From assembly GCA_963738405.1 (NCBI GenBank), contig CAVTWJ010000004.1:13499-77498 (forward strand): a DNA stretch of 64,000 nucleotides. Reading direction: 5' to 3'. The notes under the pieces were generated by a model. It did not search any database and was not told the DNA's origin. It saw only the letters and a program-made list of their open reading frames with translations. This DNA is from a candidate division FCPU426 bacterium (GTDB taxonomy: Bacteria; Oederibacteriota; Muellerivitia; Muellerivitales; Muellerivitaceae). A program made the position numbers and the translations under genes. Position 1 is the first letter of the stretch; the number at the start of each line of letters is the position of its first letter. Below, one piece after another: positions 1,911 through 40,950 of the stretch.

Positions 1911-1935
1911 CCTGTCCACGACGGGGGCCCGGGCC
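1911..1935. repeat. Truncated (left-arm) copy of the dispersed palindromic element CTGTCCACGACGGGG...
   Basis: cctgtccacgacgggggcccgggcc matches the left arm plus loop of the 30-bp palindrome found at 35079, 39679, 40150 and 40784. Confidence 0.4.
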
Positions 1936-2372
1936 TATTTGACTTTCATGCTTTCCAACAGGTCGTCATAGCCCTTTTTCAGGTTTTTCATCCCCTGGTC
2001 AATCTCCGCCTTCAGCCGGTCCAAATCCTTTTCGGTGCTTTTTTTAACGGCCTTTAGTTGGGCATCCAAAACCTTTTCCTGGTGGTGCAAGCCGTGGATC
2101 TTAAGCCGAATGTCTTTATGGACGTCCTTTCCCAGATGGGCCGTGTTCTTGGAGAGCTTTTTTTCTTGAAGGCTGATTTGGGCCTTCAGGCCGTCCAAGT
2201 CCCTGCGGATTCTTTTTTCGTAATCCGCTTTCTTTTCCGCGACCAATTTCCCGGAGTCATTCATGGTTTTTTGGGCGTCCTGGGTTACGGTTTGGACCGC
2301 TTCTTCCGCTAAGACCGGGCCGCACCCCATCAATGCAAAACAACAAATAGCCAGAACCGTGAAAGTTTTCAT
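1935..2372 (-). CDS. Coiled-coil lipoprotein (hypothetical)
   Basis: Signal peptide with lipobox LMGC; K/E/L-rich heptad-like sequence; GGAGGG SD before ATG. Confidence 0.6.
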   Translation of the reverse strand: MKTFTVLAICCFALMGCGPVLAEEAVQTVTQDAQKTMNDSGKLVAEKKADYEKRIRRDLDGLKAQISLQEKKLSKNTAHLGKDVHKDIRLKIHGLHHQEKVLDAQLKAVKKSTEKDLDRLKAEIDQGMKNLKKGYDDLLESMKVK

Positions 2373-2413
2373 GAAACCCTCCTTAACTGGCGAAGGTTGA
2401 GGCTCTCCACAAT

Positions 2414-3040
2414 CTAGGATGCTTCCTTGGCCTTAACTTTAGCCTTCCCCATCATTGCCTTTTCCCTGACCGTGACCAAAAACGAGATCGACTTGAAACG
2501 GGGCTTCTCATTCAGCTTGGTGTCGGCGATGCTGAATTCCAACACTCTTATTTCCACGTCAAAGCCGGGGTAATGGATGATCCTCAGGGCGCTTCGGTCC
2601 GTGGGAATCCCGGGGCCGGGCCTGAGGGGCCGGGGGGAGAAATTATCGTCGGTCCTAAAGTCGGCGGCGGAAACTTCCCGAAGGGTGGGGACATCCTTGG
2701 TTTCCACAGGCGTCAGCAGGTCTTGGTCCGCCTCGTCTTTGGAAAAGGAAAACATATAGCCCTCAATGCCCTTTTCCCCCGACTCGGTGGTGACTTGTAA
2801 AAACAAATCGTCCCAAACCTTGCTGTAAAACCGGGTCTCATCCCCCGCGGGGAGGGCGGGCAGGCCGTCGGCCTTATCCTCGGTGAGCACCAAATAGGTG
2901 GAAGCCACCCGGAGGGGGTCGTGGGGCCCGTTGTGGTCGAACTTTTCAATGATCCGGTTGTCGTCGTCGGCCCGGCAAACGCCCGTCAGCCCGGCGGACA
3001 GGATCAAAACCATCACCCAACCCACGGTTATCTTTTTCAT
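2414..3040 (-). CDS. Secreted hypothetical protein
   Basis: Start refined to MKKITVGWVMVLILSAGLTGVCRA (signal peptide) with GGAGGG SD; no recognisable domain. Confidence 0.55.
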   Translation of the reverse strand: MKKITVGWVMVLILSAGLTGVCRADDDNRIIEKFDHNGPHDPLRVASTYLVLTEDKADGLPALPAGDETRFYSKVWDDLFLQVTTESGEKGIEGYMFSFSKDEADQDLLTPVETKDVPTLREVSAADFRTDDNFSPRPLRPGPGIPTDRSALRIIHYPGFDVEIRVLEFSIADTKLNEKPRFKSISFLVTVREKAMMGKAKVKAKEAS

Positions 3041-3116
3041 ACGCCCCTCCTTTTTCTTTTCCCGCCCCAACTTTTCCCAACAAAACCGAAACATCCTTTT
3101 TTCGGGAGGGCCCGAA

Positions 3117-3383
3117 CTACCTTCCGCGTGCCCTCGAAAATACGATAGCCCTCAGGACGATCAGGAAAAGAACCGCCCCGATGATGGACATGGCCAAGGC
3201 GCTGAAAAACCCGTTAATCCGGATATCCAGCTCATCGGCCAGGAAACCGCCGATAAAAGCGCCCAAGATTCCGACCGCCATATCCCGAACAATCCCCATA
3301 CCCCGGCCCTGGACCAGGACGCTGGACAGCCAGCCGGTAATGAGCCCGACGATCAGGTACCAAAGAAGGTCATGTCCGCTCAT
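3117..3383 (-). CDS. GlsB/YeaQ/YmgE-family (transglycosylase-associated) small stress-response membrane protein
   Basis: ~88 aa, glycine-zipper TM segments (LIVGLITGWLSSVLV, GILGAFIGGFLA, MSIIGAVLFLIVL) typical of the family; AGGAGGA SD before MSGHDLL. Confidence 0.75.
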   Translation of the reverse strand: MSGHDLLWYLIVGLITGWLSSVLVQGRGMGIVRDMAVGILGAFIGGFLADELDIRINGFFSALAMSIIGAVLFLIVLRAIVFSRARGR

Positions 3384-3397
3384 AGCATCCTCCTCAT

Positions 3398-3904
3398 TTA
3401 AAGGTAAAGGTGAGCGCCAAATTCCGGATAAACACGCAAAGAGGTGCCACCGCTGTAAAACCAAAGGGTGGGAACCACTTGAAGGTACAGGTCTAAGGGA
3501 AGACTTTTTTTCTCGAAAATATAGGAGAGCCCGATCGGGAGCCTGCCCGCCAGGGCCGCGGGGGTGTTCAGGTCGAGATTGCCGCCCACGCCGATGTAAA
3601 AGGGCATCTCGCCGTCGGATCGTCGCACGTGGATGAGGTCAAAATCGTGCCATAAATAATCCAATTGCAGCAGGGCCGCGTCGCCGGGCAGTTTCACCGC
3701 GCCCTGAAAAGCGTTTTTGCGGTCGATCCAGTATTTGCCCGTGATGCCCCAGGAACCGGGATCGCCGAGTTCCAAACCCAAACCAAAGTTTCCCCCGTCG
3801 CGCGTGGGAGAATAGCCCTCTCCCCCCCACAGCAAAGCGGGCGCTAAAACCAAACCAACCATCATCAAGCCAATCTTCAGACGCCTATCGGTAAGGAACA
3901 GCAT
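3398..3904 (-). CDS. Outer-membrane beta-barrel protein (OmpW/OmpA-like, hypothetical)
   Basis: Signal peptide, alternating hydrophobic/aromatic beta-strand pattern, Gly/Tyr-rich, ends ...AHLYL; AGGAGG SD. Confidence 0.5.
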   Translation of the reverse strand: MLFLTDRRLKIGLMMVGLVLAPALLWGGEGYSPTRDGGNFGLGLELGDPGSWGITGKYWIDRKNAFQGAVKLPGDAALLQLDYLWHDFDLIHVRRSDGEMPFYIGVGGNLDLNTPAALAGRLPIGLSYIFEKKSLPLDLYLQVVPTLWFYSGGTSLRVYPEFGAHLYL

Positions 3905-4262
3905 AGAAGCCTCCTTTTGGCCAAATCGGTTGTGAAGTTTTCTCCTTTGTTCCGGCGCTGGTTTACCGCCACATTCATTCTTTCGCTTAAAAAGTTCGAG
4001 TTAAAGCGAGGGTGTAAAAAATAATGTTCGGACGTTTACCTTTTTTTGGAACCGCTCAAATGATGCCCATGGACTTGGAAAATGATGAATTAACTAAAAA
4101 ATTTTTCAGAGCCCTTGAATTAGAAGTGGCACTTGGTTCAGCCCTTTTGCCAGGAAAAAGGCTGGTTTTGGCCGGGATTAGGGCGAAAGGGCTGCCGCCC
4201 CTGTTTGGTCCTATAATTGTTCCAGCGCTTTGTGATTTTATTTTCGGGAGAGAGGTAAAGCG

Positions 4263-5078
4263 ATGAAACTTACCCCTAGCCGTTTGGTTCTGTTAAAAGC
4301 CGCTTGGGCCTTGACGATTGTTTTTTTATTCAGCGGATGCGCGGAACAACCCGTTCCCCCGGTCTTCTGCCTATACGGCTACCAGCGCCTAGCGGTCATC
4401 CCCTTTGACAACAATACGCAGGACCCGGCCTTGGCCGCCGCCCTGCAGGACGAGATGACAAGTGAGATCGTGAATCTCAACGCCGTGCCCGTGATCGAGG
4501 CGGGACAGGTGGCAGCCTACCTGAAGTCCATCCCCGCGAAAGCATCCGACGTGCCGACGGATTCGGGCTTGCGCGAAAAGATCGCCCAGCATTTTAAATG
4601 CGACATTTTTTTAACGGGTTCGGTGGAGGGATACAACGAGTTCCTCAAGGATGAGGAGCCCCAAAGGTCGGACTCCGGGTGGGGCTTTTACACGGACCGC
4701 AAGGTGATCGTCACCAACAACGCCAAACTGATGGACCCGTCCAGCGGCAGCCTGCTTTGGTTTCGCAATAAGAACTGGGGCTCAAGTTGGCACAACACCT
4801 GGAACCCCCTTCCGATTCCTGAAACCGTGACCCTTCCGGGCCCTTTGGGCCAATTTGTCGATTTGGTTCATTTGGTTCAATACCGGTTGGACAACAAGGT
4901 GGACGTGGAACCCCCTTCGTTGGATGAAAACCCCAGCGGCGCCTTGATCTACCCCCGGAGCAGGGCTTTTGCCGGGCTTCGCCAGAAGGCCATCGTGGCC
5001 GCCGTGGGTTCTTTGGTTTGCGACTTTCAGGGCCATTACAACTGGACGCCGGGGTTAAGGGCCATCCACGCACAATAG
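4263..5078 (+). CDS. Lipoprotein with CsgG/LpoB-like N-terminal fold (hypothetical)
   Basis: Lipobox LFSGC; motif LAVIPFDNNTQDPALAAALQDEMTSEIVNL resembles the CsgG/LpoB family core. Confidence 0.55.
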   Translation: MKLTPSRLVLLKAAWALTIVFLFSGCAEQPVPPVFCLYGYQRLAVIPFDNNTQDPALAAALQDEMTSEIVNLNAVPVIEAGQVAAYLKSIPAKASDVPTDSGLREKIAQHFKCDIFLTGSVEGYNEFLKDEEPQRSDSGWGFYTDRKVIVTNNAKLMDPSSGSLLWFRNKNWGSSWHNTWNPLPIPETVTLPGPLGQFVDLVHLVQYRLDNKVDVEPPSLDENPSGALIYPRSRAFAGLRQKAIVAAVGSLVCDFQGHYNWTPGLRAIHAQ

Positions 5079-5105
5079 GAGAAAATGAATAGATGAGGTT
5101 GGGGG

Positions 5106-5131
5106 TTGCCCATGACGGGGACCCGTATTGG
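5106..5131. repeat. Degenerate copy of the dispersed palindromic element core (GACGGGGACCCGT)
   Basis: tgcccatgacggggacccgtattgg shares the central 13-nt core with the 30-bp palindromes. Confidence 0.3.
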
Positions 5132-5138
5132 AAAATAA

Positions 5139-5165
5139 ATATGTACGGTAATGTTCCGTACATAT
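5139..5165. promoter_or_regulatory. Perfect 10-bp inverted repeat ATATGTACGG-N7-CCGTACATAT immediately upstream of the antitoxin gene: candidate TA autoregulatory operator
   Basis: Palindrome 28 nt upstream of the tacA-like ATG, overlapping an AT-rich -10-like region. Confidence 0.45.
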
Positions 5166-5192
5166 GTTATTCTTAACGTGGAGGTAACGGCC

Positions 5193-5474
5193 ATGGCGAA
5201 AGCCCTTAAAACAAAAGAAGAACGCATCGAACTGAGGGTAAGGCCTCAGGATAAGCGGCTATTGGAAAAAGCCGCCCAAGCGCAAGGATTGAGCCTGAGT
5301 TCCTATCTCGTGACGCGTTCCCTCCATGCGGCCCAGGAAGATGCGATCCCGGTTAAAACCTACCTTCCGCCTAAACGGGACGTGGACTTATTTCTAAGGC
5401 TTCTGGAAAACCCTCCCGTGCCTAACGAAAAGCTTAAGGCGGCGGCACGGCGTTACCAAAAAGAAATATCCTGA
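5193..5474 (+). CDS. DUF1778/TacA-family ribbon-helix-helix antitoxin
   Basis: C-terminal LENPPVPNEKLKAAARRY closely matches the TacA consensus (LDNPPAPNEKLLAAA); RHH-like N-terminus; GGAGG SD. Confidence 0.85.
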   Translation: MAKALKTKEERIELRVRPQDKRLLEKAAQAQGLSLSSYLVTRSLHAAQEDAIPVKTYLPPKRDVDLFLRLLENPPVPNEKLKAAARRYQKEIS

Positions 5475-5483
5475 TCGTCCGTT

Positions 5484-5999
5484 ATGACAGGCCAAAAATG
5501 GAAGTTTGTCCCTATCACGGAAAAACCTAACCTCGAAGCTTTTGACTGCGGCATTTCTGAACTCAATGATTACCTGAAAAAATACGCGGGCCAGAACCAC
5601 CGCAAGGGGTTGGGAAGCACTTATGTCCTCATTCCGGCCGAAGGAGAACCGGTCGCGGCCGGTTATTACACCCTGAGCATGGCCCAGGTGGAATTACGCT
5701 CCCTGCCCGAATCCCACCGTAAAAACCTCCCGAAGTACCCTGTTCCCGCTGTCCGATTGGGCCGCCTTGCCGTTGACCGCCAATGGCAAGGAACTGGATT
5801 GGGGGAGATATTATTGATGGATGCCATCCGCCGGTCTGTTGCCGCCGTCCAATCGGTGGCCGCGAAATATATGATCGTCGATGCGAAAAACGAAAAGGCC
5901 GAGGAGTTTTATTTACGTTATGGGTTTCAACCCTTTGAAGGCGGTTCGTACTCATTGGTAGTGGCCATCGATACGTTAAAAGGACTTTTCGAGAAATGA
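5484..5999 (+). CDS. GNAT-family acetyltransferase toxin (TacT/KacT-like, acetylates aminoacyl-tRNA)
   Basis: 171 aa, acetyl-CoA motif RLAVDRQWQGTGLGEILL; lies 10 nt downstream of the DUF1778 antitoxin, the canonical arrangement. Confidence 0.85.
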   Translation: MTGQKWKFVPITEKPNLEAFDCGISELNDYLKKYAGQNHRKGLGSTYVLIPAEGEPVAAGYYTLSMAQVELRSLPESHRKNLPKYPVPAVRLGRLAVDRQWQGTGLGEILLMDAIRRSVAAVQSVAAKYMIVDAKNEKAEEFYLRYGFQPFEGGSYSLVVAIDTLKGLFEK

Positions 6000-6089
6000 A
6001 GTGAGCGGCTAGGGTTGTTCGCGACGGGGAGCACCAAGCCCCCAGCTTGGCGCAGTGGGAATAGACAATAAAAACAAGGAGGTTCCAGG

Positions 6090-6266
6090 ATGGAAAAATT
6101 CGTAGGTTACTTCATCGGGGTCGCCATCGCCATGGCGATCGCCCTCGGCATCGGGTGGCTCAAAGGCGGGGCAGATCTCACTAAGACCATGGGTATCTTT
6201 TTCGCGGGATGGATTGTCGGGGCGATCTCCATGTACATCAAAGCGATGATCGTCTATAAACCCTGA
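6090..6266 (+). CDS. Small (58 aa) two-TM membrane protein absent from the ORF track
   Basis: ATG preceded by AAGGAGG at a 7-8 nt spacer; translation MEKFVGYFIGVAIAMAIALGIGWLKGG...GWIVGAISMYIKAMIVYKP has two hydrophobic helices. Confidence 0.45.
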   Translation: MEKFVGYFIGVAIAMAIALGIGWLKGGADLTKTMGIFFAGWIVGAISMYIKAMIVYKP

Positions 6267-6284
6267 CCCGGCTTCTTGGCCCTT

Positions 6285-6845
6285 TTACTCGGCCTGAAAC
6301 TCTTTTGCTGTAATAACGGTTCCTTGGGTGGCGAAAACCTTTTCGGTTAAAACCCTGTGTACTTCCTCATCCGGGTCAAAACAAGCGTCCTTCACGACAA
6401 CGCACTGAAAATCCAAATCGCTGGCGGCCCGGATGGTGGATAAAACGATGCCGCTAGTGGAAATTCCCATGAGCACCAAATTCTCGATGCCCTGGGCCCG
6501 CAGGATCATCTGCAGGGAATTACCGGCAAAGGCGCTGACACGGTGCTTGTAGATAACCCTTTCGCCAGTCTTGTATATAGAAGGATGGATATTCGCTGAA
6601 TCCGTTCCCTTGACGAAAATTCCTCTTTCTTTAACCATCGCGAAACGCTTGTTCAAGGGGCTGATTTCGGGATAGCCCGGTTCAAACCCTATCCCTACGT
6701 GAAGGATGAAAAACCCGCCTTTTCGGGCTGTTTCCATCACTAAAGCCGCGTTGGGCAAGATATCCGTTGCCGGTGGAATAAAACCAAAGATCCCTTCTTG
6801 AATGTCCAAAGAAAGAACAGCTGTTTTATGGGGATCGAGTTTCAT
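6285..6845 (-). CDS. Isochorismatase-family cysteine hydrolase
   Basis: Isochorismatase fold motifs (TAVLSLDIQ, HRVSAF, DACFD with catalytic Cys); start refined to MKLDPHK with GGAGGA SD. Confidence 0.8.
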   Translation of the reverse strand: MKLDPHKTAVLSLDIQEGIFGFIPPATDILPNAALVMETARKGGFFILHVGIGFEPGYPEISPLNKRFAMVKERGIFVKGTDSANIHPSIYKTGERVIYKHRVSAFAGNSLQMILRAQGIENLVLMGISTSGIVLSTIRAASDLDFQCVVVKDACFDPDEEVHRVLTEKVFATQGTVITAKEFQAE

Positions 6846-6998
6846 TTTTTTCCTCCGGATGCGGAATGTAATGGGGTGCATCATACACTTTCAAGTCGCA
6901 AAACCCTCCAAGTCGAGAATCAACGCGATGTAAAAAAATGTGTTTAACGCAATATTTTTTTAGTCATTTCCGATAAGTTTTTCTAAAATGAACGCACT

Positions 6999-7865: not shown

Positions 7866-8036
7866 GAATATCTTTCAAGATTTTTTACCACCACGATGCG
7901 TCCCCTTCGGGGACAGGCTTGCATCGCACCAAGTCACTAAGAACAGCAATAAGCCTTAAAATGTTTGAAATCCTTTTTTAAAATTAGCTTTTCTTGGTGT
8001 CTTTGTGCCTTGGTGGTGAAGCAATTAGAGGTGATT

Positions 8037-8699: not shown

Positions 8700-8718
8700 A
8701 TTCTTCTCAAACAAAAAG

Positions 8719-9365: not shown

Positions 9366-9373
9366 GGCGCCAA

Positions 9374-9398: not shown

Positions 9399-9444
9399 AG
9401 TTAATCAAAAAACCCATTAAATTAAGGCTTTTTGAGGGGTTTTA

Positions 9445-11739: not shown

Positions 11740-12173
11740 ACGAGACGGCCTCCAACTTTAAAGACCGGGTGATGGTTTCCGCGGGCGAAGCCCTGGACGC
11801 GGGCATGTTTTGGCGCGGTAACCTGGCGGGCGCCTTGAAACGCAGGGACTATAAGGGAACCTTCTGGGGAATCCTGGCCTTGAGCCTGTTTCTTTTCTTT
11901 TATGTTTGGCAGCACATGCAGGTGGTGAAGCTCTCCTACGAGGTTCAGGGTCTGCGCTCCCAGAAACAAACTTTGACCAACCAATACTATTACCTCAAGT
12001 ACAAGATGTACGACGTGGACAGCCTCTCCAAGGTGGAATCCATTGCCCGCGATCAGCTGGGCATGGTGACGCCCCGCACCGACCAGGTGGTCATCCTGTC
12101 CGATAACGACTCCCTGGTTCCGCGCTGGCTGACCTGGTGGACTCAAACGATGGATAAGGGAGGCCGCTTGTGA
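11736..12173 (+). CDS. ftsL: Cell division protein FtsL
   Basis: ~145 aa, single TM (GILALSLFLFFYVW) followed by a coiled-coil; positioned between rsmH and ftsI; the start may be a later in-frame ATG (11772). Confidence 0.7.
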   Translation: MNETASNFKDRVMVSAGEALDAGMFWRGNLAGALKRRDYKGTFWGILALSLFLFFYVWQHMQVVKLSYEVQGLRSQKQTLTNQYYYLKYKMYDVDSLSKVESIARDQLGMVTPRTDQVVILSDNDSLVPRWLTWWTQTMDKGGRL

Positions 12174-17234: not shown

Positions 17235-17240
17235 CCAAGG

Positions 17241-32883: not shown

Positions 32884-32894
32884 AGGAGACGACC

Positions 32895-33092
32895 ATGGGC
32901 TGGTGGAAAGATTTCTGGACGGGTCTCAAAAAGGGGAAGAAAGCCCGGGTTGATAAGCGGAAAGAACAAAGCCGCAGAAAAGGCGACCGCCGCTGGATGG
33001 GCCCGGAAGGTGAAAAACCCAGGGCCAAAAAGGAGCCCCGGCGCAAGAAGGAACGGCGCAAGAAGGCCCGGCGAAAACCCCCAAAGGCCTAA
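32895..33092 (+). CDS. Extremely basic 65-aa protein (K/R-rich, hypothetical)
   Basis: Strong SD AAAGGAGACGACC-ATG; ~45% Lys/Arg; no TM. Confidence 0.4.
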   Translation: MGWWKDFWTGLKKGKKARVDKRKEQSRRKGDRRWMGPEGEKPRAKKEPRRKKERRKKARRKPPKA

Positions 33093-33140
33093 TAACCCCC
33101 CTCCCCGGCCAGACATAGCCTGTGATTGGGGTGGTTAACT

Positions 33141-33340
33141 ATTTCTGTTAAACCGACCCTCAAAACTGTTAAACAAGTTCCGAAAACTGTTAAACAACAC
33201 CAAAAAACTATTAAACTGCGCCAAAATTTCTGTTAAACAACCTCTAAAAACTGTTAAACTAGGCCTGATTTCTGTTAAACAGGCCTTTTTATTGGGTAAA
33301 CACCGTTCTTTTATCTGTTAAAATTTAATTTCTATTAAAC
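33141..33340. repeat. Iteron-like array: ~10 copies of CTGTTAAAC (within 21-nt units AAAACTGTTAAACAA...) at 21-22 bp phasing in an AT-rich intergenic region
   Basis: Copies at 33145, 33166, 33187, 33208(v), 33230, 33251, 33272, 33292(v), 33315, 33332; regular two-helical-turn spacing. Confidence 0.7.
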
Positions 33341-33362
33341 AAACCCCCTTCCTGTTCATCGC

Positions 33363-35003: not shown

Positions 35004-35078
35004 AAGGCCGGAGTTAATTATTGGGCGGGGATATAATCCTAAAGTGAATCATATCTCCTGTGATTTTAGCTTAAGGTG

Positions 35079-35108
35079 TTGTCCACGATGGGGAGCCATC
35101 GTGGACAA
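35079..35108. repeat. Perfect palindromic element TTGTCCACGATGG-GGAG-CCATCGTGGACAA (13-bp arms)
   Basis: Member of the dispersed hairpin family; located upstream of the AraC gene; followed by an AAAGAAAAA tail. Confidence 0.7.
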
Positions 35109-35216
35109 AGAAAAACGCTTGTAATACTGTTTTGATACGGTTGGCCTTGTCCTGTTTTTATGACAGAAATTGAGTCGGTGGCCAACTCTTTAGATTAATT
35201 ATTATGAGGCTGATGG

Positions 35217-36089
35217 ATGACCGAAGCACCTTTGGCGGAAAAAATTGAATTCGTCCGGTCCGAGGACCTTGCGGGCATTGAAATATTGCGGGCCGACAAT
35301 ACCAAGCATTGTTTCCGGTGGTTTCACCAGACCTACTCCGTCAATACGCCTTTGAATTACCAAGCCCCCGATTACCACCAATTCAAGTATCGCGGGAAAA
35401 GCTTCACGGGGTTTCCGGGAGAGACCATGATGCTCGAACCCGGGGAAATCCACAGCGCCACTTACTTATCGAACCCGGTTACTTTTCGGGTCATCATGAT
35501 TCCACCCGTAATCCTCGAACAATGCGCCTTGGAATTGGACGTCCGGGGTTCCAGGCCCCATTTAAAAACAGCGCTCTCGGACGATTCGGTTCTCTTTAAG
35601 GCCTTCCGGAATCTTCACGCCAGCATCGAAACGGATTGCACGGCCTTGGAACGTCAGTCCCGTTTTGTCTATTGCGTCAGGCATCTATTGAGGGCGGCGG
35701 CGGAAATAATTCCGAAACCCCCTCCCGCCGAAAGAAGTTTAAAGAAGGTTAAGAAGGCGGTGGAATTCTTGAAAACCCATTGGGCCGAAAATATTACACT
35801 CGACCAACTCGTCAAGGTCGTGGGTCTTAACCGATTTTATCTCTCCCGGGTTTTCACCCGGGAAATGGGAATTCCTCCGCATGCCTTCCAGATTCAATTG
35901 CGGATTGCCCGGGTCCGGGAATTCTTGAAAATGGGCGTTCCTATTTCCGAAATCGCCCTCGCTGCGGGTTTTACCGACCAATCCCATATGGACCGCCATT
36001 TCAAGAAAATTACGGGGACAACGCCCGCCCGTTATGCCGGACTAAGATTGAAGACAAAGACCAGGGCAATAACGTCCTATAGTTTGTAA
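35217..36089 (+). CDS. AraC/XylS-family transcriptional regulator
   Basis: C-terminal dual HTH: LDQLVKVVGLNRFYLSRVFTREMG ... IALAAGFTDQSHMDRHFKKITGTTPARY. Confidence 0.85.
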   Translation: MTEAPLAEKIEFVRSEDLAGIEILRADNTKHCFRWFHQTYSVNTPLNYQAPDYHQFKYRGKSFTGFPGETMMLEPGEIHSATYLSNPVTFRVIMIPPVILEQCALELDVRGSRPHLKTALSDDSVLFKAFRNLHASIETDCTALERQSRFVYCVRHLLRAAAEIIPKPPPAERSLKKVKKAVEFLKTHWAENITLDQLVKVVGLNRFYLSRVFTREMGIPPHAFQIQLRIARVREFLKMGVPISEIALAAGFTDQSHMDRHFKKITGTTPARYAGLRLKTKTRAITSYSL

Positions 36090-36151
36090 ATCCTTCTCCC
36101 TAGACTTCCAATGTCTCCAGTTAAAACGGAATTTTTGAGTGAGGGGTTATC

Positions 36152-38887
36152 ATGAAGAATCAGTCCTTGTTGATTACGATCGGGCTTTTGTTTTTTGCAG
36201 CTTGCTTCTATATTTCCTGCGGAAGCGGCAGTCCCACGGCGCCGGCCCCCACCCCCGTTCCCGTGCCCACCGATACCCCTTGCGGTTATCCGGGCAATAC
36301 CTGCACAGTGACCTCCACCTTTACCTCGACCGATACGCCTACCTCGACCCATACGGCCACGACCACTTATTCGCCCACCCAAACCAATACCCCGACCCAA
36401 ACCTTCACCTGGACGGTCACGAAAACCCCGACGGACACCTTTACGTCAACTTCCACCTTTACGATAACGGATACACCGACAATAACGGATACACCCACCC
36501 ACACCCACACCTACACCTTCACCTTCAGCCCCACGGAAACCAGGACTTCGACGGAAACCTTCACACCGTCCGATACCCCTACGATTACGGATACCCCCAC
36601 CGTATCCAACACGCCCACCGTGACCAATACCCTGACCAGTACTACCACGCCCACTGTCACGAACACGGTGACCTGCACGAACACCCCGACCAACACTTCC
36701 CAATATTCCTCTACCTATACACCCACGATCACTCGCACGGCCACGATCACCTTAAGTCCCACCAATACCTCCACGTCCACGCCAGTGGGTATTTTCGTCA
36801 GCGGTTCGGTGACCTACACGGGGGCGGGAACCGTCTCGTCGGCCAACCCCATCGTGATTATCGCCTCCAATCCCCTGGCAACGAACGGGATGCCCGAAAC
36901 GGTTATCACCACAAACGGAGGCTCTTATTCTTTCGCGGTGACCGGTGGGAATAATTCCATCGTCTGCTGGTACTCGAACAAAGCGCCGCTCAATTGCCTG
37001 ACGAATGGCGGGGCCCCAGAGCAGGGGAATTACATGGGCTGGTACAACGGGGGCGCCCAGCCAGTCACGATCAATATCACTTCCAGTACTTCCAACATCA
37101 ACGTCACGATTGGTTCGGGCAGCGCCCTCCAGGGGGTTGCCGGGCCGGTGAGTTACCTGGGATTGAACAGCGTCGATAACAACCACCCGGTGATCGTGGA
37201 ACTCTTCAAGGACAGCGGCTACAGCACCCTGGACCAGTCGATGGGCCCGGGCGAGGAAGAGTTCAGCTGTGCCCATTCGACTTACAACTTCGCCTCCAGC
37301 AACAACGGGTCGACCGAATACCTGCTGGCTTTCCAGGACAACGCGGGTACGGGCCGCGTGAACGCCGCCAGTCAGGTTCCCGGCGGGGACCCGATGGTTT
37401 TGGCCGGATCCGTGGTGATTGGTACCTCAACGACCAAGAATATCGCTTTTCCCACTTCCACGCCGACCATGACGGTCACCTCCACCCCGATCCCCGCCCC
37501 CTACGTCTTCAAGGGAACGATCCATTACACCGGCGCAAAAAGCACTGCGGGCCAATACCTATTGATGATGGCCACCACCTGCATCAGCTGCGGCGGCAAC
37601 GATATGGTCACTTGGTCCACCCCGGGAACCTCGAGCGCGGTTTCCTATACCCTCAACCTGCCCTCCACCGGCAGTTACGTGGTCATGGGCATGTTGTCCA
37701 ATGATCCGGTCATGAACGGGCCGCCGCCGGTGGGCGCGCCTTACGGATTCTACGGAACAGGCACTGTTTGTTTGGGAGGAACACCCACGACCCTGGCCGT
37801 GAACGGGCCTACCACGCAGACTGCCAACATGTCTTTTGGGGACAGCTGCGAACTGAATGGTGTTTCGGGGACCATCAGCTACACCGGCGCGGGCTCAGTG
37901 GGCAGTAATGGTAACTCGCTGTATGTGACGGCTTATACGGATTCAAGCTACTCGACTCAGATTTCGGGACCCGGAAACAACTCCGTGACGGTGAATGGGG
38001 GCACTTATAACGTGATCAACACCGGCGGCGCCCCCACTACCGTCTATCTCCAGGCTTATTACGGGTCCGACAATAACAACGCCCCGGCAACCTGTGACGC
38101 GGTGACCAATTTAGGCCCGGTGGCCTTCAACACCACCACGACCACCAAAAATATCACGCTTTCCGACGCCTTCCTCTACAACTGCACGAACACCCTCTCG
38201 GGCACCGTCAATTGGACAGGGGCCGGCACGGTCAACACGTCCGATCCCATCGTCGTGCATGCCGTCCTTTGCCCCAGCGGGGATTGCAACAACCAAACGA
38301 ACTACTCTTGCGCAGTGACCCAAAACGGCGGGAACTATTTCGTGGGTTTTCCCGCAGCGGGATCCGTTTACGTTTCTGAGGAATACGTGGCCACGGGAAG
38401 GATTTGGAACAATTGGGATTACAACATCGGAAGCTACGCCGAAAATGCCGATGGAACTTGTTCCATCGAGACCGGCAATAATGGAAACCCCGTCATCGTC
38501 AGCGGAGCCGCCGTTTCAAACCTGAGTTTCGGTTCCAGTTGTGGACAACTCCAGGGTTATACCGGAACCGTGACCTATAACGGTTCCAAGGGCGCCCCGA
38601 CTTGCAATGGAAACCCCGGACGCCAAATTTGGGTCTCGGCCACGTATGGAAACAGTAAAAACGAGTTTTCCTATTGGGATACTAGCGTATGCAATAACGG
38701 TGACACCTATAAGATCATCTATGGAACAACGAGCGCGAGTCTATATTTGAGGGTCTGGTTTGATGACCAGGGTACGGGTGACCACCAGCCGCAGACCGGC
38801 GAGTCTGGGACCGTAGTGGGTCCCTACGTTACGAGCACCAACCCAACCTCTATCAACATTTCCTTTGATGATTCCCAAACCTGGTAA
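36152..38887 (+). CDS. Large repetitive surface lipoprotein: lipobox, ~180-aa Thr/Pro-rich tract, then ~5 repeated ~130-aa domains (G-x-[VI]-x-[YW]-T-G-A-G)
   Basis: Signal peptide plus lipobox YISC; TPT/TDT low-complexity region; recurring GSVTYTGAG, GTISYTGAG, GTVNWTGAG, GTVTYNGSKG units; terminator follows. Confidence 0.7.
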   Translation: MKNQSLLITIGLLFFAACFYISCGSGSPTAPAPTPVPVPTDTPCGYPGNTCTVTSTFTSTDTPTSTHTATTTYSPTQTNTPTQTFTWTVTKTPTDTFTSTSTFTITDTPTITDTPTHTHTYTFTFSPTETRTSTETFTPSDTPTITDTPTVSNTPTVTNTLTSTTTPTVTNTVTCTNTPTNTSQYSSTYTPTITRTATITLSPTNTSTSTPVGIFVSGSVTYTGAGTVSSANPIVIIASNPLATNGMPETVITTNGGSYSFAVTGGNNSIVCWYSNKAPLNCLTNGGAPEQGNYMGWYNGGAQPVTINITSSTSNINVTIGSGSALQGVAGPVSYLGLNSVDNNHPVIVELFKDSGYSTLDQSMGPGEEEFSCAHSTYNFASSNNGSTEYLLAFQDNAGTGRVNAASQVPGGDPMVLAGSVVIGTSTTKNIAFPTSTPTMTVTSTPIPAPYVFKGTIHYTGAKSTAGQYLLMMATTCISCGGNDMVTWSTPGTSSAVSYTLNLPSTGSYVVMGMLSNDPVMNGPPPVGAPYGFYGTGTVCLGGTPTTLAVNGPTTQTANMSFGDSCELNGVSGTISYTGAGSVGSNGNSLYVTAYTDSSYSTQISGPGNNSVTVNGGTYNVINTGGAPTTVYLQAYYGSDNNNAPATCDAVTNLGPVAFNTTTTTKNITLSDAFLYNCTNTLSGTVNWTGAGTVNTSDPIVVHAVLCPSGDCNNQTNYSCAVTQNGGNYFVGFPAAGSVYVSEEYVATGRIWNNWDYNIGSYAENADGTCSIETGNNGNPVIVSGAAVSNLSFGSSCGQLQGYTGTVTYNGSKGAPTCNGNPGRQIWVSATYGNSKNEFSYWDTSVCNNGDTYKIIYGTTSASLYLRVWFDDQGTGDHQPQTGESGTVVGPYVTSTNPTSINISFDDSQTW
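36270..36790 (+). repeat. Low-complexity ACC/ACG-rich coding repeat (Thr/Pro linker of the lipoprotein)
   Basis: Imperfect tandem acg-ccc-acc / acc-gat-acc units encoding TPT, TDT, TNT. Confidence 0.5.
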
Positions 38888-38902
38888 AAGCTTTTGGCAA
38901 AA

Positions 38903-38937
38903 AGGCCCGTCCCTTCATTGGGACGGGCCTTTTTTTA
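38903..38937 (+). terminator. Rho-independent terminator
   Basis: AGGCCCGTCCC-ttcatt-GGGACGGGCCT stem-loop followed by TTTTTTT. Confidence 0.7.
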
Positions 38938-39192
38938 TTTGGAGTGGGCGTCAAGGAACCAGTCGCCGGAAAATATCATGGTTGTATATAGGTGATATAC
39001 TGGCCGCATTGAAAAACCCGGCAGTTGAAACGGGATATTAACGGCAGGGCGTTATTGAACGGGATGGTTATCGATGGAACCTGAAGTCCAATAATAAAAA
39101 AACCGGGTCTGGTCCCACGCTCTCCAGCGTGGAACAGGGCTCAATTCACCGCAGAATTGAGCAGGGATTAACCATTATTAGTACGAGTTAGG

Positions 39193-39220
39193 TGTTCACG
39201 ATGGGGACCCGTCGTGGACA
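39193..39220. repeat. Palindromic element copy (TTCACGATGG-GGAC-CCGTCGTGGACA, 2 mismatches)
   Basis: 41 nt upstream of the first AT-rich small ORF. Confidence 0.6.
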
Positions 39221-39260
39221 GGTAACATGGATTGGGAAACATTGAAAGAGGATGTGAAGT

Positions 39261-39665
39261 TTGGCAAAAAATGAAAAAATCCAAATATTATTATTCCCTT
39301 TTCTGTTCCTTGGGTTAATGATTATTTTTCCATATATAAGTTTTGGATTTAATAAATGGCTTGGGAGAAATTTAGGGAATTTTTTATTTTTTCTACCGCA
39401 ATATGTATTTCCATATGACGGGTATTTCAGAAGTGGCCCGTTTGATGAAACTGCCCACTTAAGTCTTCATCCGCTTGGTTTGCCAGGATGGATTGCATCG
39501 TTGATTCATTGGACGATTGTCATTTTTATTTATTATTGGCTTACTCGAAAATTATCCTTTGGAAAATCACTTCTAATGTTTTGCTTTTTGGCTATTTCAT
39601 CATTAGTAATTGTCTATTTTTCATTGGGGGTTTTTGGATGGAATTTCAGCATTGATGGACCATAA
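39261..39665 (+). CDS. Small hypothetical membrane protein (AT-rich island gene 1)
   Basis: 134 aa, ~33% GC, 3-4 TM segments; AAAGAGGA SD region. Confidence 0.5.
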   Translation: MAKNEKIQILLFPFLFLGLMIIFPYISFGFNKWLGRNLGNFLFFLPQYVFPYDGYFRSGPFDETAHLSLHPLGLPGWIASLIHWTIVIFIYYWLTRKLSFGKSLLMFCFLAISSLVIVYFSLGVFGWNFSIDGP

Positions 39666-39678
39666 AAAAGGAATTCTC

Positions 39679-39708
39679 TTGTCCACGACGGGGACCCGTC
39701 GTGGACAA
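39679..39708. repeat. Perfect palindromic element TTGTCCACGACGG-GGAC-CCGTCGTGGACAA
   Basis: 13-bp arms, 4-nt loop, followed by AGAAAAAAGG; 43 nt upstream of the next ORF. Confidence 0.7.
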
Positions 39709-39750
39709 AGAAAAAAGGCGTAAAGTGTTATCGGCAATAGGAGATCGAAA

Positions 39751-40086
39751 ATGGATCGCAAAATAATCGCCGAAGTTATATTCGCATTTTTAGGAGTATG
39801 GATGATCGCCCTCCCTTCATTCTTTTTAAAGTTCCTCGCAAAGGGGGCACAGTTTAATTATGAAAATTTAAAATCAAATTTAGATAGGATTAAAAGGGAA
39901 GGGCCGGCAAATCTGAACGAAAAATTAGCGACGAAATTTGGTCCCAACATCTTTCAAAAAATCTCGATGAATAAGGATGTTTATAAACCCCCGACGGAAA
40001 CACAAAAGTGGTTAATGAGATCATTGGGGATATTATTCGTTTGCATATCTCTTGGCGTTTTATTCAATCTGATTGGGGTTAGATGA
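39751..40086 (+). CDS. Small hypothetical membrane protein (AT-rich island gene 2)
   Basis: 111 aa, N- and C-terminal TM helices, AT-rich; GGAGATCG SD-like sequence. Confidence 0.5.
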   Translation: MDRKIIAEVIFAFLGVWMIALPSFFLKFLAKGAQFNYENLKSNLDRIKREGPANLNEKLATKFGPNIFQKISMNKDVYKPPTETQKWLMRSLGILFVCISLGVLFNLIGVR

Positions 40087-40149
40087 AACATTGTTAATTT
40101 TTCTCTCCAGTTTCTTAACCGATTTGAGGACCGTTTGGTTGAAGCTTGT

Positions 40150-40178
40150 TTGTCCACGACGGGGACCCATCGTGGACA
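40150..40178. repeat. Palindromic element copy TTGTCCACGACGG-GGAC-CCATCGTGGACAG
   Basis: One mismatch; followed by AAAAATAAAG; 58 nt upstream of the next ORF. Confidence 0.65.
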
Positions 40179-40235
40179 GAAAAATAAAGTGTAAGTATTT
40201 CATTTGGACGGTATTACGGGAAAAAGGATTAGAAT

Positions 40236-40769
40236 TTGGAAACTAAAACGGAAATAAATCCAAACGAATTTAGAACACTTTACCGTCCCCGTTTTGCTGA
40301 TTGGCTCATTGCTTGTCTTTTTTTCTTAACTTTTGGTTTGGGACTTCCATCTATGTTGGTTGAAAAAAGTTTGGATGTTTGGGGAAAGAACATTTTATCT
40401 TTGGATTCGATTGAAAGGTTTTTTGGGTGCGTTGTAGTAATCGGAATGGAAATAATTTTATTGAAAGAATGTTTAAAATCTTGGCTTTCTGAAGTTAGTG
40501 TTAATTCTATGAGACTAAAATTAAAAATTCTTTCTTTTGAAAAAATAATTGAATGGAAAACTCTTCATTCTATTTCTCTTTCGCCCAATAGCTGGGGAAC
40601 AGTTGATTTGTATTTGTTTTTTCCAAATAAAAAGAAAATTAGGTTTTGGTCGGCCTTTGGTCCTGCAAGTAGATTTATCTACCAAGGTATAAAAGAATTC
40701 AGACCTGATCTGATTGATGAACTGAAAAAGCAGGGGAAAATGCATGAGTATAAAGGTGTATTTATTTAA
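40236..40769 (+). CDS. Hypothetical membrane protein (AT-rich island gene 3)
   Basis: 177 aa, TTG start with AAAAAGGA SD; two N-terminal TM helices; AT-rich. Confidence 0.5.
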   Translation: METKTEINPNEFRTLYRPRFADWLIACLFFLTFGLGLPSMLVEKSLDVWGKNILSLDSIERFFGCVVVIGMEIILLKECLKSWLSEVSVNSMRLKLKILSFEKIIEWKTLHSISLSPNSWGTVDLYLFFPNKKKIRFWSAFGPASRFIYQGIKEFRPDLIDELKKQGKMHEYKGVFI

Positions 40770-40783
40770 ACCAGATACTTAAC

Positions 40784-40812
40784 CTGTCCACGACGGGGAC
40801 CCGTCGTGGACA
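40784..40812. repeat. Perfect palindromic element CTGTCCACGACGG-GGAC-CCGTCGTGGACAG, followed by a second small IR (ACAGTCAGT..ACTGACTGT)
   Basis: Same family; lies directly 3' of island gene 3. Confidence 0.7.
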
Positions 40813-40920
40813 GTCAGTACCACTGACTGTCTTATTCGAAAATGTTTCCCCGGAACTTTCTAGCTTTCTCAAAAAATTTTAGGGGAATGATAAACCTGTA
40901 CTTACCTGGTAAAGTTACCC

Positions 40921-40950
40921 CCTGTCCGCAAAAGGAACCCGTTGTGAACA
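40921..40950. repeat. Degenerate copy of the palindromic element (CTGTCCGCAAAAGG-AAC-CCGTTGTGAACAA) with an AAAGAAAA tail
   Basis: 32 nt upstream of ORF 40982. Confidence 0.35.

Follow-up and report, generated by a model that had tools for sequence, protein, structure and literature searches.

A 28-bp palindrome that recurs between genes in candidate division FCPU426 bounds mobile gene cassettes, a conclusion that is well supported by the anatomy of these units and by their occurrence in different contexts. On balance, we favour the reading that the palindrome is a double-stranded site-specific recombination site joining the cassettes, as part of a serine-recombinase cassette system in FCPU426 that may be said to resemble an integron made of different parts.

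Results

Copies of the palindrome in the window

The window, that is, the whole stretch of 64,000 nucleotides analysed here, contains five full copies of the consensus TGTCCACGACGGG-GA-CCCGTCGTGGACA, all on the + strand (35080-35107, 39193-39220, 39680-39707, 40151-40178 and 40785-40812), together with four or five decayed ones. An earlier note on this DNA had proposed a dispersed family with full and degenerate copies, which we confirmed; to the degenerate copies at 1913, 5107-5134 and 40922-40949 we added a half-site at 6016-6030 and a doubtful − strand copy at 7888-7915. As that note had stated, every copy in the window lies between ORFs. Matches with up to three mismatches did not occur in any of 100 dinucleotide-preserving shuffles of the window, and none is expected by chance. 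The shared orientation of the full copies, the cassette boundaries and the truncated serine recombinase described below had not been noticed in that note.

The element had been described as a perfect 30-bp palindrome of the form 13+4+13. It is indeed palindromic, and copy 35080 is perfect owing to a compensated T/A change (centre GGAG). The conserved core, however, spans 28 bp, forming 13+2+13 as duplex DNA or a 12-bp stem with a GGAC loop if single-stranded, and 30 bp is reached only via a weak Y/R pair flanking this core. Only the copies at 39680 and 40785 match the consensus exactly; two T-G mispairs occur in copy 39193 and one C-A mispair in copy 40151. The invariant central GA is the sole asymmetry of the 28-mer and sets its orientation, which is the same in all full window copies and equals that of the flanking genes. 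Positions 11-15 are the most conserved (>98%), while the arms are unequal: right-arm positions 19-22 are conserved to only 60-89%, compared to 81-97% at the mirror positions 7-10. The features of the window are as follows.

1913-1940, +, half-site, left arm and GGGG followed by unrelated sequence, 25 nt past the stop of methyltransferase gene 1138-1887
4142-5079, +, cassette-like block with ORF 4263-5078 (271 aa)
5107-5134, +, degenerate site TGCCCATGACGGGGACCCGTATTGGAAA
5135-6015, +, toxin-antitoxin cassette: TacA-like antitoxin 5151-5474 and GNAT toxin 5484-5999
6016-6030, +, half-site TGTTCGCGACGGGGA closing the toxin-antitoxin cassette; a full site at the aligned position in L036
6060-6270, +, small cassette-like block with ORF 6090-6266 (58 aa); homologues in at least 7 other loci
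7888-7915, −, strongly degenerate, doubtful copy TGTCCCCGAAGGGGACGCATCGTGGTGG, possibly a chance match
33100-40949, +, island of about 7.85 kb (boundaries approximate), missing at the same chromosomal position in three related genomes
35080-35107, +, junction site TGTCCACGATGGGGAGCCATCGTGGACA, the first of the island, 76 nt past the stop of ORF 33363-35003
35108-39192, +, large inter-site segment with two genes, for an AraC-family regulator (35217-36089) and a secreted protein (36152-38887)
39193-39220, +, junction site with two C>T changes in the left arm
39221-39679, +, cassette 1, low-GC ORF 39261-39665 (134 aa), membrane-like
39680-39707, +, junction site matching the consensus exactly
39708-40150, +, cassette 2, ORF 39751-40086 (111 aa)
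40151-40178, +, junction site with right-arm variant G19>A
40179-40784, +, cassette 3, ORF 40236-40769 (177 aa), with 33% identity to the ORF of an L013 cassette
40785-40812, +, terminal junction site, exact consensus; counterpart of the recombinase-proximal site in L088 and L016
40813-40921, −, serine recombinase gene remnant, about 110 bp of the 3' end (blastn to L088 4807-4948, L016 and L143)
40922-40949, +, degenerate site with 7 mismatches, right end of the island, 32 nt upstream of a conserved 107-aa backbone ORF

The window array sits in a 7.85-kb insertion: in three syntenic, island-free relatives the locus reads yfiH - 65-aa ORF / 107-aa ORF - OGG, and no copy of the 28-mer was found within 21 kb of it. 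Within the island, the secreted protein (911 aa, Thr/Pro-rich) has its own canonical terminator at 38899-38944, and neither the 134-aa ORF of cassette 1 nor the 111-aa ORF of cassette 2 matched a known family. The remnant at 40813-40921, antisense to the array, derives from a gene for a 276-aa serine recombinase and contains a short GTCAGT..ACTGAC hairpin that follows the recombinase stop codon in L088 and L099. Elsewhere in the window, ORF 4263-5078 has homologues at five other loci (72-79% amino-acid identity) and more distant or partial ones at two further loci, and the DNA homology of its block stops at the ORF stop codon. The same toxin-antitoxin cassette as at 5135-6015 was found between sites in L036, L079 and L179.

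Spread of the 28-mer

More than 570 occurrences of the 28-mer were found in the DNA retrieved from 21 genome assemblies and from >120 peat or soil metagenome contigs. They lie on 98 genome stretches of the 21 assemblies, nearly all of which are labelled candidate division FCPU426, and on >120 metagenome stretches, so that a purely local duplication, against which a genome-wide count had been proposed as a check, does not apply. A search of viral contigs yielded no copy. FCPU426 is an uncultured phylum of soil and peat. The blocks examined hold at least 30-47 copies per assembly, and in one nearly complete MAG the arrays occupy 7 or more separate regions, only one of which has a recombinase gene. 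Nearly every locus has all its sites in a single orientation; L047, L090 and a head-to-head pair in L100/L101 were the exceptions observed. The distribution, likewise put forward as a check, is strictly intergenic and oriented relative to genes.

The palindrome bounds mobile gene cassettes

Sites in arrays have a median spacing of 792 bp. About 81% of the interval between sites is taken up by one ORF, and in 157/163 intervals the longest ORF and the site point the same way; an independent metagenome set of 290 sites replicated this bias (224 co-oriented vs 42 opposite). The median distance from a stop codon to the following site is 18 nt, and from a site to the next start codon 50 nt.

The cassettes are shuffled. 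Among 53 homologous cassette pairs, the 500 bp past the upstream site were unrelated in 48/49 and those past the downstream site in 46/51. Cassettes with 100% identity stand in different contexts both within one MAG (L026/L095; L027/L035) and between MAGs (L024/L027), and high-identity alignments end ≤20 nt from a site centre in 51 of 111 cases, compared to 1.8% expected.

A transcription-factor operator, for example of the adjacent AraC-family protein, could control downstream genes through a palindromic, dimer-type site such as this one, of which one copy lies 110 nt upstream of an AraC-family gene. Yet the position of the site is tied to the upstream stop codon and not to the downstream start, the distance to which ranges from 1 to >600 nt. 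AraC-family genes are not recurrent near sites, and the cassettes carry genes of unrelated function (152 Pfam families in 150 proteins). We consider an operator of this kind extremely improbable; the earlier suggestion of a global regulator is not supported either, as the site follows stop codons and does not precede promoters.

Homology between cassettes breaks in the centre of the site

Where two loci share only the downstream cassette, their sites differ at positions 1-10 (10 differences) vs 19-22 (5); in loci with only the upstream cassette in common, the differences lie at positions 16-28 (47) vs 6-10 (4). No differences occur at positions 11-15 (Fisher p = 1e-5). The break in homology between cassettes is hence located between palindrome positions 10 and 16; the sites of L009 and L052 are identical up to position 15 and different from position 16 on.

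The palindrome had also been expected to form a very stable RNA hairpin, and a mainly RNA-level element, acting as a 3' hairpin in termination, upstream mRNA stabilisation or processing, would leave the cassette-like patterns secondary. The site is co-oriented with genes about 18 nt past their stop codons, its consensus RNA folds at -26.6 kcal/mol (z = -6), and the usual location of group IIC introns is downstream of terminator-like stem-loops (PMC1702495). As a selected feature, however, the hairpin did not hold up. Mirrored arm positions show no base-pair covariation and no compensatory changes: at pair 10/19, T-A was observed 15 times vs 14 expected under independence, and a C-A mismatch occurs in 70/288 copies (24%), while the 'loop' is the invariant, most conserved part. 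This independent assortment could reflect recurrent CpG transitions instead of recombination. No T-tract follows the site, the downstream flank being A-rich, and a terminator scan did not flag the sites, unlike the terminator at 38899-38944 in the same array. An RNA-level role, which we regard as very unlikely, also leaves the sequence identity across species and the shuffling with central breakpoints unexplained.

A truncated serine recombinase is linked to the site

The consistent partner of the site is a 276-aa protein with Resolvase and Recombinase domains that lacks a zinc ribbon: it ends at the Recombinase-domain boundary, whereas the nearest relative of full length (58% identity, ungapped) runs on into a zinc ribbon. 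Its 19 clusters share 68-100% identity, are all 275-283 aa long and carry the catalytic motifs YVRVSSxxQ and DRLxR. The gene is under purifying selection (dN/dS = 0.04-0.16, with dS saturated). Its best NCBIfam matches are the cassette chromosome recombinases CcrA and CcrB, all far below cut-offs. In 9/9 independent contexts a site lies 9-115 nt past the recombinase stop codon and arrays follow. Eight of these contexts have a single site convergent with the gene, and L100/L101 has the head-to-head pair; what lies on the opposite side of the gene varies. In L016, L052, L060 and the window, arrays end in remnants of the gene. No such arrays accompany two short homologues that are more distantly related. 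The gene is nearby in only a minority of arrays, and because most lack it, any mobilisation by its product must be assumed to occur in trans. It often stands beside conjugative-element genes (TraG coupling protein, ArdC, RadC) and might be part of an integrative element for which the site is no more than a target.

This last point is part of a broader alternative, in which the 28-mer is a REP-like element that owes its spread and upkeep to another agent, be it a RAYT-type HUH transposase or an unknown one. Cassette exchange would in that case be a by-product of short-homology or hairpin-stimulated recombination at the palindrome, and the recombinase would be the integrase of a separate integrative/conjugative element using the palindrome as attachment site, as introns and IS110 elements use it. 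The 28-mer is indeed short, palindromic, extragenic, multi-copy and lineage-wide, and nearby recombinase genes are absent from most arrays. The site edge serves as an insertion point for group II introns and IS110 elements, bearing out the proposal of a mobile-element target, and REPs and other inverted repeats are known targets of both (PMC11187229; PMC1702495). RAYT-like genes are present in these genomes, one scoring above the NCBIfam REP_Tyr_transpos cut-off. The four such genes, however, have another inverted repeat, GGGGCCAGGC, on their flanks and not the 28-mer, which argues against the RAYT partnership that the earlier note had raised; its idea of a dedicated binding protein stays plausible with the serine recombinase in that place. 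Like the 28-mer, REP elements lie at gene 3' ends and are lineage-specific, but REP-style inverted doublets (REPINs, BIMEs) were not seen, with one orientation per locus nearly everywhere. The near-invariant 28-mer, 'loop' included and without compensatory variation, is conserved in sequence and not structure, and its copies bound mobile cassettes. Breakpoints are limited to five central positions and not spread across the 28 bp, and the recombinase-site arrangement is constant while the other gene flank varies. We therefore hold a REP-like origin to be rather unlikely.

Discussion

A model for cassette exchange

Serine recombinases make a 2-nt staggered cut at a central dinucleotide. In the recombination-site reading that we favour, the site would be made up of two inverted half-sites of 13 bp that flank a 2-bp, non-palindromic centre, as for these enzymes, and since GA fixes its polarity, the arrays are direct repeats. 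A cassette would comprise a right arm, one or a few co-oriented genes and a left arm, with the invariant GA common to two adjoining units. The proposed enzyme is the lineage-specific recombinase of about 276 aa whose gene lies convergent with the array beside the terminal site, and we infer that it binds and cuts the 28-mer. It is a large-serine-recombinase relative that stops right after the Recombinase domain, without the zinc-ribbon and coiled-coil module, and a dimer of catalytic and Recombinase domains only would be expected to span some 13 bp on each half-site. The Recombinase and zinc-ribbon domains of large serine recombinases jointly cover a 25-bp half-site, the zinc ribbon lying on its outer part (PMC3783163), so that a 13-bp half-site fits an enzyme without this domain. 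A symmetric dimer does not explain the unequal conservation of positions 19-22 and 7-10.

Recombination of two direct sites would excise a cassette as a presumptive circle with one site, which could re-insert at any other site; over repeated rounds, arrays would grow and cassettes would be reshuffled, both inside a genome and from one genome to another. As the recombinase gene at its end has decayed, the window array (35080-40812) is probably mobilised only in trans or frozen.

Comparison with known systems

Integrons (IntI, attI, attC arrays, CALIN) share with the arrays described here the succession of mostly single ORFs in one orientation with a recombination site after each, shuffling between arrays and genomes, diverse cargo including toxin-antitoxin modules, targeting of the sites by group IIC introns and IS110/IS1111-type elements, and a recombinase gene at one end of some arrays, many others lacking it as CALINs do. 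Their recombinase, however, is of the tyrosine and not the serine family, and its gene is divergent at the array 5' end, whereas here it is convergent at the 3' end. An attC site is a 55-140-nt imperfect, structure-conserved element folded as a single strand, with R/L boxes, extrahelical bases and GTTRRRY, in contrast to a near-perfect 28-bp duplex palindrome of fixed sequence. We identified no distinct attI-like site, and the arrays are dispersed at many loci.

The 28-mer could alternatively be a tyrosine recombinase site with 11-bp arms and the 6-bp spacer GGGACC, its modules being moved by host Xer in the manner of Acinetobacter pdif. In dif, the XerC and XerD arms differ in conservation, and so do the two arms of the 28-mer; its 28-bp length and the 11-6-11 reading fit dif-type sites. 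The 28-mer is not known to resemble the dif consensus, which is widely conserved. The pdif/dif modules (XerC/XerD) are likewise discrete gene modules bounded by 28-bp sites, shuffled through many contexts and often carrying toxin-antitoxin or adaptive genes (PMC6449649, PMC13141974), and insertion sequences target their sites as well (PMC10132070). In L099 and L100, a few kb separate tyrosine integrase genes from the serine recombinase gene, but no tyrosine recombinase is consistently beside arrays or among the recurrent gene families. Moreover, dif modules alternate in orientation and occur mainly on plasmids, whereas the sites here are direct repeats in dispersed chromosomal arrays, linked to a serine recombinase, and their 13+2+13 symmetry leaves just two asymmetric base pairs. 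We judge an Xer-type site to be unlikely.

Crossover sites of serine recombinases (hix/gix, res site I) have inverted half-sites around a polarity-setting 2-bp crossover dinucleotide, the same layout as here. Compared to these systems and to Tn5397 TndX, Tn4451 TnpX and SCC CcrAB, the enzyme described here lacks the zinc ribbon, the coiled coil and the small HTH domain; all sites are alike, with no attP/attB distinction, and accessory sites were not seen. Its units are single genes of about 0.5-3 kb and not elements of 20-60 kb as in large-serine-recombinase systems. TndX targets always have a central GA (PMC4430133), which they have in common with the 28-mer. SCC elements, whose CcrA and CcrB are the best matches named above, pile up in tandem at one site, as the cassettes do here.

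The palindrome is a multi-copy intergenic site of FCPU426

The palindrome repeated in the window marks the joints of a cassette system that occurs in FCPU426 assemblies and in related peat and soil metagenome contigs. Its core is the 28-mer TGTCCACGACGGGGACCCGTCGTGGACA, of which five full copies, exact or closely similar, lie on the + strand of the window. Described earlier as a perfect palindrome of 30 bp, the element is indeed palindromic, but its core spans 28 bp and reaches 30 only through a weak Y/R pair. The exact consensus occurs in only two window copies; the remaining full copies carry 1-3 changes, some of which break the palindrome. Beside them are 4-5 decayed copies: those listed in the earlier note were all recovered, here starting at 1913, 5107 and 40922, and a half-site and a doubtful match were found in addition.

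Copies of the site in the window
1913: decayed copy (half-site)
5107: decayed copy
6016: half-site, additional
7888-7915, - strand: doubtful copy, additional
35080, + strand: full copy
39193, + strand: full copy
39680, + strand: full copy
40151, + strand: full copy
40785, + strand: full copy
40922: decayed copy

In dinucleotide-preserving shuffles of the window, no copies are expected at up to three mismatches. Every window copy falls between genes, as had been proposed. A CRISPR or tandem repeat was ruled out by the spacing of 400-3000 bp and the ORFs filling the intervals. Single arms resembling DNA uptake sequences were also ruled out, since isolated arms in the window occur at about chance level: outside the palindromic copies, the exact 11-mer arm is found once, as the 1913 half-site, and all other isolated matches contain a mismatch and are about as numerous as expected by chance.

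The suggested count of the motif beyond the window, in genome assemblies and metagenome contigs, returned many further copies and showed the site to be multi-copy, lineage-specific and intergenic. In the genome collection, 98 stretches from 21 assemblies match a degenerate 26-nt pattern of the site; nearly all of these assemblies are labeled candidate division FCPU426, the others being a few MAGs that come from these soil and peat studies too but are mislabeled. With the same pattern, more than 120 metagenome stretches were obtained among the matches listed, and no copies in viral contigs. Each of the two fetched data sets (genome and metagenome) holds about 290 copies at up to four mismatches, and well-assembled MAGs have at least 30-47 copies each, counted in the fetched blocks. 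The sites form arrays of up to eight copies per 8 kb and share one orientation in nearly every locus. The exceptions seen are the loci L047 and L090, which have isolated opposite-strand sites, and L100/L101, where a rare inverted arrangement occurs: two head-to-head sites 22 nt apart (L100 10955-11032), both with the unusual distal arm GGTGTARTGGACA, lie downstream of a recombinase gene.

Conservation of the site points to a duplex recognized by a protein

The site has a 13-2-13 layout and is arranged as direct repeats within arrays. Positions 11-15 are its most conserved part, with G14 invariant in 287 of 288 copies and A15 in 285 of 288; these two are the sole positions that break the two-fold symmetry. 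In both data sets, conservation is far lower at positions 19-22 of the right arm than at the mirror positions 7-10, which our model leaves unexplained. No covariation between mirrored arm positions was detected at the pairs 7/22, 8/21, 9/20 and 10/19. At pair 10/19, for example, we counted C-G 141, C-A 70, T-G 31 and T-A 15 times, with 14 T-A expected under independence.

The stable RNA hairpin suggested earlier would indeed fold well (-26.6 kcal/mol), but covariation and a T-tract are missing and mismatches are tolerated. The fixed sequence, the invariant center and the tolerated mismatches rather point to a duplex site recognized by a protein than to a selected hairpin. An intrinsic terminator was ruled out, as the flank downstream of the site is A-rich without a T-tract and the sites were not flagged by a terminator scan. 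The organism does use canonical terminators, as shown by one at 38899-38944 within the window array, in which a 15-bp stem is followed by a T-run after the gene for a 911-aa protein. Rfam at the gathering threshold gave no match on the sites; its matches in related loci were group II intron domains and one fluoride riboswitch only.

Crossover sites of serine recombinases consist of inverted half-sites around an asymmetric central 2-bp dinucleotide, which sets polarity. The 28-mer shares both the 13-2-13 layout and the asymmetric central dinucleotide with them. Its central GA is also that of TndX targets, in which GA is always present (PMC4430133).

The sites delimit co-oriented single-gene cassettes

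The longest ORF is co-oriented with the site (GA on the sense strand) in 157 of 163 inter-site intervals, about 81% of an interval being filled by one ORF at a median spacing of 792 bp. The median distance is 18 nt from stop codon to site start and 50 nt from the site to the next start codon. The metagenome data replicate this arrangement: a co-oriented ORF ends within 120 nt upstream at 224 of 290 sites, compared to 42 with the opposite arrangement. The G+C content of the intervals is 45%, versus 50% for the loci overall. Their cargo is highly diverse, with 152 Pfam families among 150 non-redundant cassette proteins, and includes GNAT and PIN toxins, TPR proteins, HAD and alpha/beta hydrolases, methyltransferases, secreted beta-propeller proteins, metal transporters and toxin-antitoxin pairs.

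Cassettes are very probably exchanged at the center of the site

Matching intervals were found in unrelated surroundings, with identity beginning and ending inside the palindromes. They occur between different contigs of the same MAG (L027 2018-2937 and L035 4914-3995), at two loci of one MAG (L026 and L095, over 1276 bp), between different MAGs (L024 and L027, over 1020 bp) and, identical or nearly so, between the loci L009 and L052. In 53 pairs of homologous cassettes, the adjoining 500 bp were unrelated in 48 of 49 cases outside the upstream site and in 46 of 51 outside the downstream site. Of the 111 informative ends of inter-locus alignments with at least 97% identity, 51 lie within 20 nt of a site center, compared to 1.8% expected; most of the others mark the distal end of an intron or insertion sequence that has its proximal end at a site. 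The window itself is a mosaic at 4.1-6.3 kb, where the homologues of the blocks 4142-5079, 5104-6032 and 6060-6270 lie in loci that differ from block to block, and decayed sites mark the block boundaries. The readings as an RNA hairpin or as an operator leave the shuffling and the conservation pattern unaccounted for.

To locate the exchange point, junctions with a cassette shared on one side only were taken, and their two sites were compared. When the downstream cassette was shared (15 junctions), 10 differences fell at positions 1-10 and 5 at positions 19-22; when the upstream cassette was shared (17 junctions), 47 differences fell at positions 16-28 and 4 at positions 6-10 (Fisher p = 1e-5). 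Positions 11-15 showed no differences at any one-sided junction. A cassette therefore consists of a right arm, the gene or genes and a left arm, with the exchange point in the GGGGA center. The comparative breakpoints, between positions 10 and 16, are compatible with exchange at the dinucleotide at a resolution coarser than one nucleotide. As evidence of a central crossover, the independent assortment of C10/T10 and G19/A19 carries less weight than this junction test, both being CpG transitions, which may arise repeatedly. Taken together, the cassettes are very probably mobile, with a central exchange point.

A short serine recombinase is found at array ends

Clustering of the ORFs over all loci revealed a serine recombinase recurring at array ends, and no recurrent tyrosine recombinase. 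The protein (about 276 aa) comprises Resolvase and Recombinase domains, lacks the zinc ribbon (PF13408) and stops at the final positions of the Recombinase profile; its catalytic motifs YVRVSS and DRLYR are intact. Its close database relatives, 19 clusters at 68-100% identity, are all 275-283 aa long and all without PF13408. The next relatives, at up to 59% identity, include full-length large serine recombinases of 430-480 aa with a zinc ribbon, together with shorter or partial entries. The alignment to a 476-aa relative is gap-free over 259 residues and stops at the Recombinase/zinc-ribbon boundary, beyond which the relative continues with its zinc ribbon. Among six recombinase genes dN/dS was 0.04-0.16 with saturated synonymous sites, from which we conclude that the short form is old and functional.

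In all nine independent contexts a site follows the recombinase stop codon at 9-115 nt and the array continues from there, the other flank of the gene varying between cases. The site is single and convergent in eight of them (the loci L009, L084, L088, L016, L099, L102/L103 and L060, and the window) and part of the head-to-head pair in the ninth, L100/L101. In the window, only a remnant of the gene is present.

Recombinase remnant in the window
40813-40921: about 110 bp of the 3' end of the recombinase gene, flanked by the terminal site and the degenerate copy at 40922

In large serine integrases, the Recombinase and zinc-ribbon domains jointly cover a 25-bp half-site, the zinc ribbon being the outer one (PMC3783163). 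A recombinase without zinc ribbon fits a half-site of 13 bp. Judged from sequence, we somewhat favor the view that the truncated serine recombinase catalyzes cassette exchange. The strongest remaining doubt is that it belongs only to an integrative element that targets the site and does not move cassettes: ArdC, RadC or TraG genes often adjoin the recombinase gene, and most arrays are without it. Next to the genes of more distant short homologues (L105 and L106), no array of this or an analogous palindrome was found. L105, from a different organism, has its own perfect 18-bp palindrome, GGAGTATTCGAATACTCC, in five copies (396-6366) that do not adjoin its short serine recombinase.

A block comprising an ArdC-like antirestriction protein and small ORFs is shared by the loci L088, L035 and L006, beside recombinase and arrays; two contigs of one MAG carry it at 99.7% identity. 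In this MAG, three contigs of about 29 kb have related arrays and may be variants of a plasmid or an integrative element.

Group II introns, IS110 elements and RAYT-like genes

At 13 or more sites, the first base of a group II intron (Rfam RF02003, RF00029) immediately follows position 28. Among these introns is a derivative of about 830 bp that lacks ORFs; one MAG has many copies of it, more than 99% identical and each directly after a palindrome. The insertion point of IS110-family elements lies one base downstream of the site. Insertion of group II introns and IS110 elements is also known at attC sites, REPs and terminator-like stem-loops (PMC1702495, PMC3001079, PMC11187229).

Copies of the intron derivative of about 830 bp (locus, positions)
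L027, 215-1045
L036, 5897-6725
L063, 4583-5411
L074, 6283-7112
L077, 2558-3386
L096

A phmmer search with E. coli RayT as query in 1.31 Mb of site-bearing DNA identified four RAYT-like genes, one of which passes NCBIfam NF047646 (REP_Tyr_transpos). The encoded proteins of about 315 aa have a Y1_Tnp domain fused to a DnaA C-terminal HTH. A RAYT gene flanked by the 28-mer, which the earlier note had proposed to look for, was not among them: their flanks are AACAAAGGGGCCAGGC and GCCTGGCCCCTTTGTT instead.

RAYT-like genes (locus, positions)
L002, 5555-6502: between its own inverted repeat AACAAAGGGGCCAGGC ... GCCTGGCCCCTTTGTT
L194
L107
L094

In the RAYT-like genes and their repeat, these genomes appear to have a second repeat/transposase system that is distinct from the palindrome. 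The reading of the palindrome as part of a REP/RAYT system is weakened: like REPs, the 28-mer is a short, extragenic, multi-copy and lineage-specific palindrome, but it shows neither their structure-preserving, compensatory hairpin variation nor their frequent inverted pairs (REPIN/BIME), and all four RAYT-like genes are flanked by the other repeat.

Relation to known cassette systems

With integrons, the system has in common that its cassettes, mostly with a single ORF, are co-oriented in arrays and move as site-bounded units. However, attC sites are imperfect, 55-140 nt long and composed of R''/L''/L'/R' boxes with extrahelical bases and GTTRRRY, whereas the site described here is near-perfect and 28-30 bp long. 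A classical attC was ruled out, as the length is wrong, the palindrome too perfect, and both extended flank conservation and GTTRRRY are missing. In integrons, the tyrosine integrase IntI is divergent from the array; here, the gene at the array end encodes a convergent serine recombinase. From large serine recombinases, which discriminate attP and attB by a C-terminal zinc ribbon and coiled coil, this enzyme differs in lacking the zinc ribbon.

A tyrosine-recombinase site as in pdif/Xer modules fits in length only. It also measures 28 bp, but consists of XerC and XerD arms around a 6-bp spacer and occurs in inverse orientation, whereas the sites here are direct repeats with 13+2+13 symmetry and without a consistently linked tyrosine recombinase. 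Phage_integrase genes were seen only in L099 and L100, a few kb from the serine recombinase. We conclude that the palindrome system is a site-bounded gene cassette system that, by their defining tests, is neither an integron, nor a pdif module, nor a REP/RAYT system.

It appears an evenly balanced proposition that FCPU426 has an independently evolved integron analogue, in which a serine recombinase reduced to catalytic and Recombinase domains would act on the 28-bp GA palindrome to cut out, take up and shuffle cassettes of single genes, forming arrays at many chromosomal loci and passing cassettes between species. The open-access literature on serine-recombinase cassette or integron-like systems and on FCPU426 mobile elements yielded nothing relevant. 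If the proposition is true, this would be, as far as the literature could show, the first serine-recombinase cassette-array system, with a naturally minimal enzyme for which a 28-bp site suffices without attP/attB asymmetry. The systems compared, integrons and the dif modules of Acinetobacter, both depend on tyrosine recombinases, whereas the proposed one, from an uncultured phylum that is abundant in soil and peat, would work with a serine recombinase and a simple duplex site of 28 bp. A third system would mean that cassette-array genome plasticity evolved more than once, and would explain how FCPU426 genomes acquire accessory genes. As a natural experiment, the recombinase would show what large serine integrases gain from their zinc-ribbon and coiled-coil module, and a 276-aa enzyme acting on a short, symmetric, GA-polar site would be attractive as a compact genome-engineering tool. 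In metagenomes, the 28-mer provides a simple marker for cassettes.

The window array is an insertion

Three related genomes, whose OGG orthologues are 68-74% identical, share the backbone around the window array in the order dcw cluster, amidase, yfiH, 249-aa ORF, 65-aa ORF, 107-aa ORF and OGG, and within 21 kb they are free of copies of the site. The window has about 7.85 kb (roughly 33100-40949) between its 65-aa and 107-aa ORFs; these boundaries are approximate, the intergenic sequences of the empty sites being too diverged for exact ones. The window array is thus an insertion absent from the three related genomes. The island begins with iteron-like repeats and a 546-aa ORF. Next come the 35080 site, the genes for AraC and the 911-aa protein, three small cassettes of low GC split by sites, and finally the recombinase remnant and the degenerate site. 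Each of the three proteins encoded in the small cassettes is a singleton at 90% identity without family match, and only the 177-aa protein (40236-40769) has a distant homologue in another cassette.

Further features of the island and its surroundings
33141-33302: 6-7 copies of a repeat of about 21 bp, core AAAACTGTTAAACA / ATTTCTGTTAAACA, directly upstream of ORF 33363-35003; these look like iterons or a partition/operator array
33363-35003: 546-aa ORF with charged linker and membrane segments, no family match; its N-terminal 150 aa have homologues in five site-bearing loci (L019, L147, L056, L217, L053)
36152-38887: 911-aa secreted protein without Pfam or NCBIfam match; long Thr/Pro-rich repeat region of PTxTxT units, DNA repeat family D1 at 36312-36666
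32884-32895: point where the window lacks the 249-aa ORF that lies between yfiH and the Lys/Arg-rich 65-aa ORF in the three related genomes (L229 8601-9350)

Two features lie elsewhere in the window. Within the dcw cluster, the 736-aa ORF 12170-14380 contains four tandem 15-bp units (TGGAACGGTTCTGAA-like) at 14095-14181, a predicted pentapeptide repeat near its C-terminus. A strong negative AT skew (-0.19 to -0.29) extends over 46000-52000, across three large + strand ORFs homologous to PMT_2/DUF8201 membrane glycosyltransferases of related loci.
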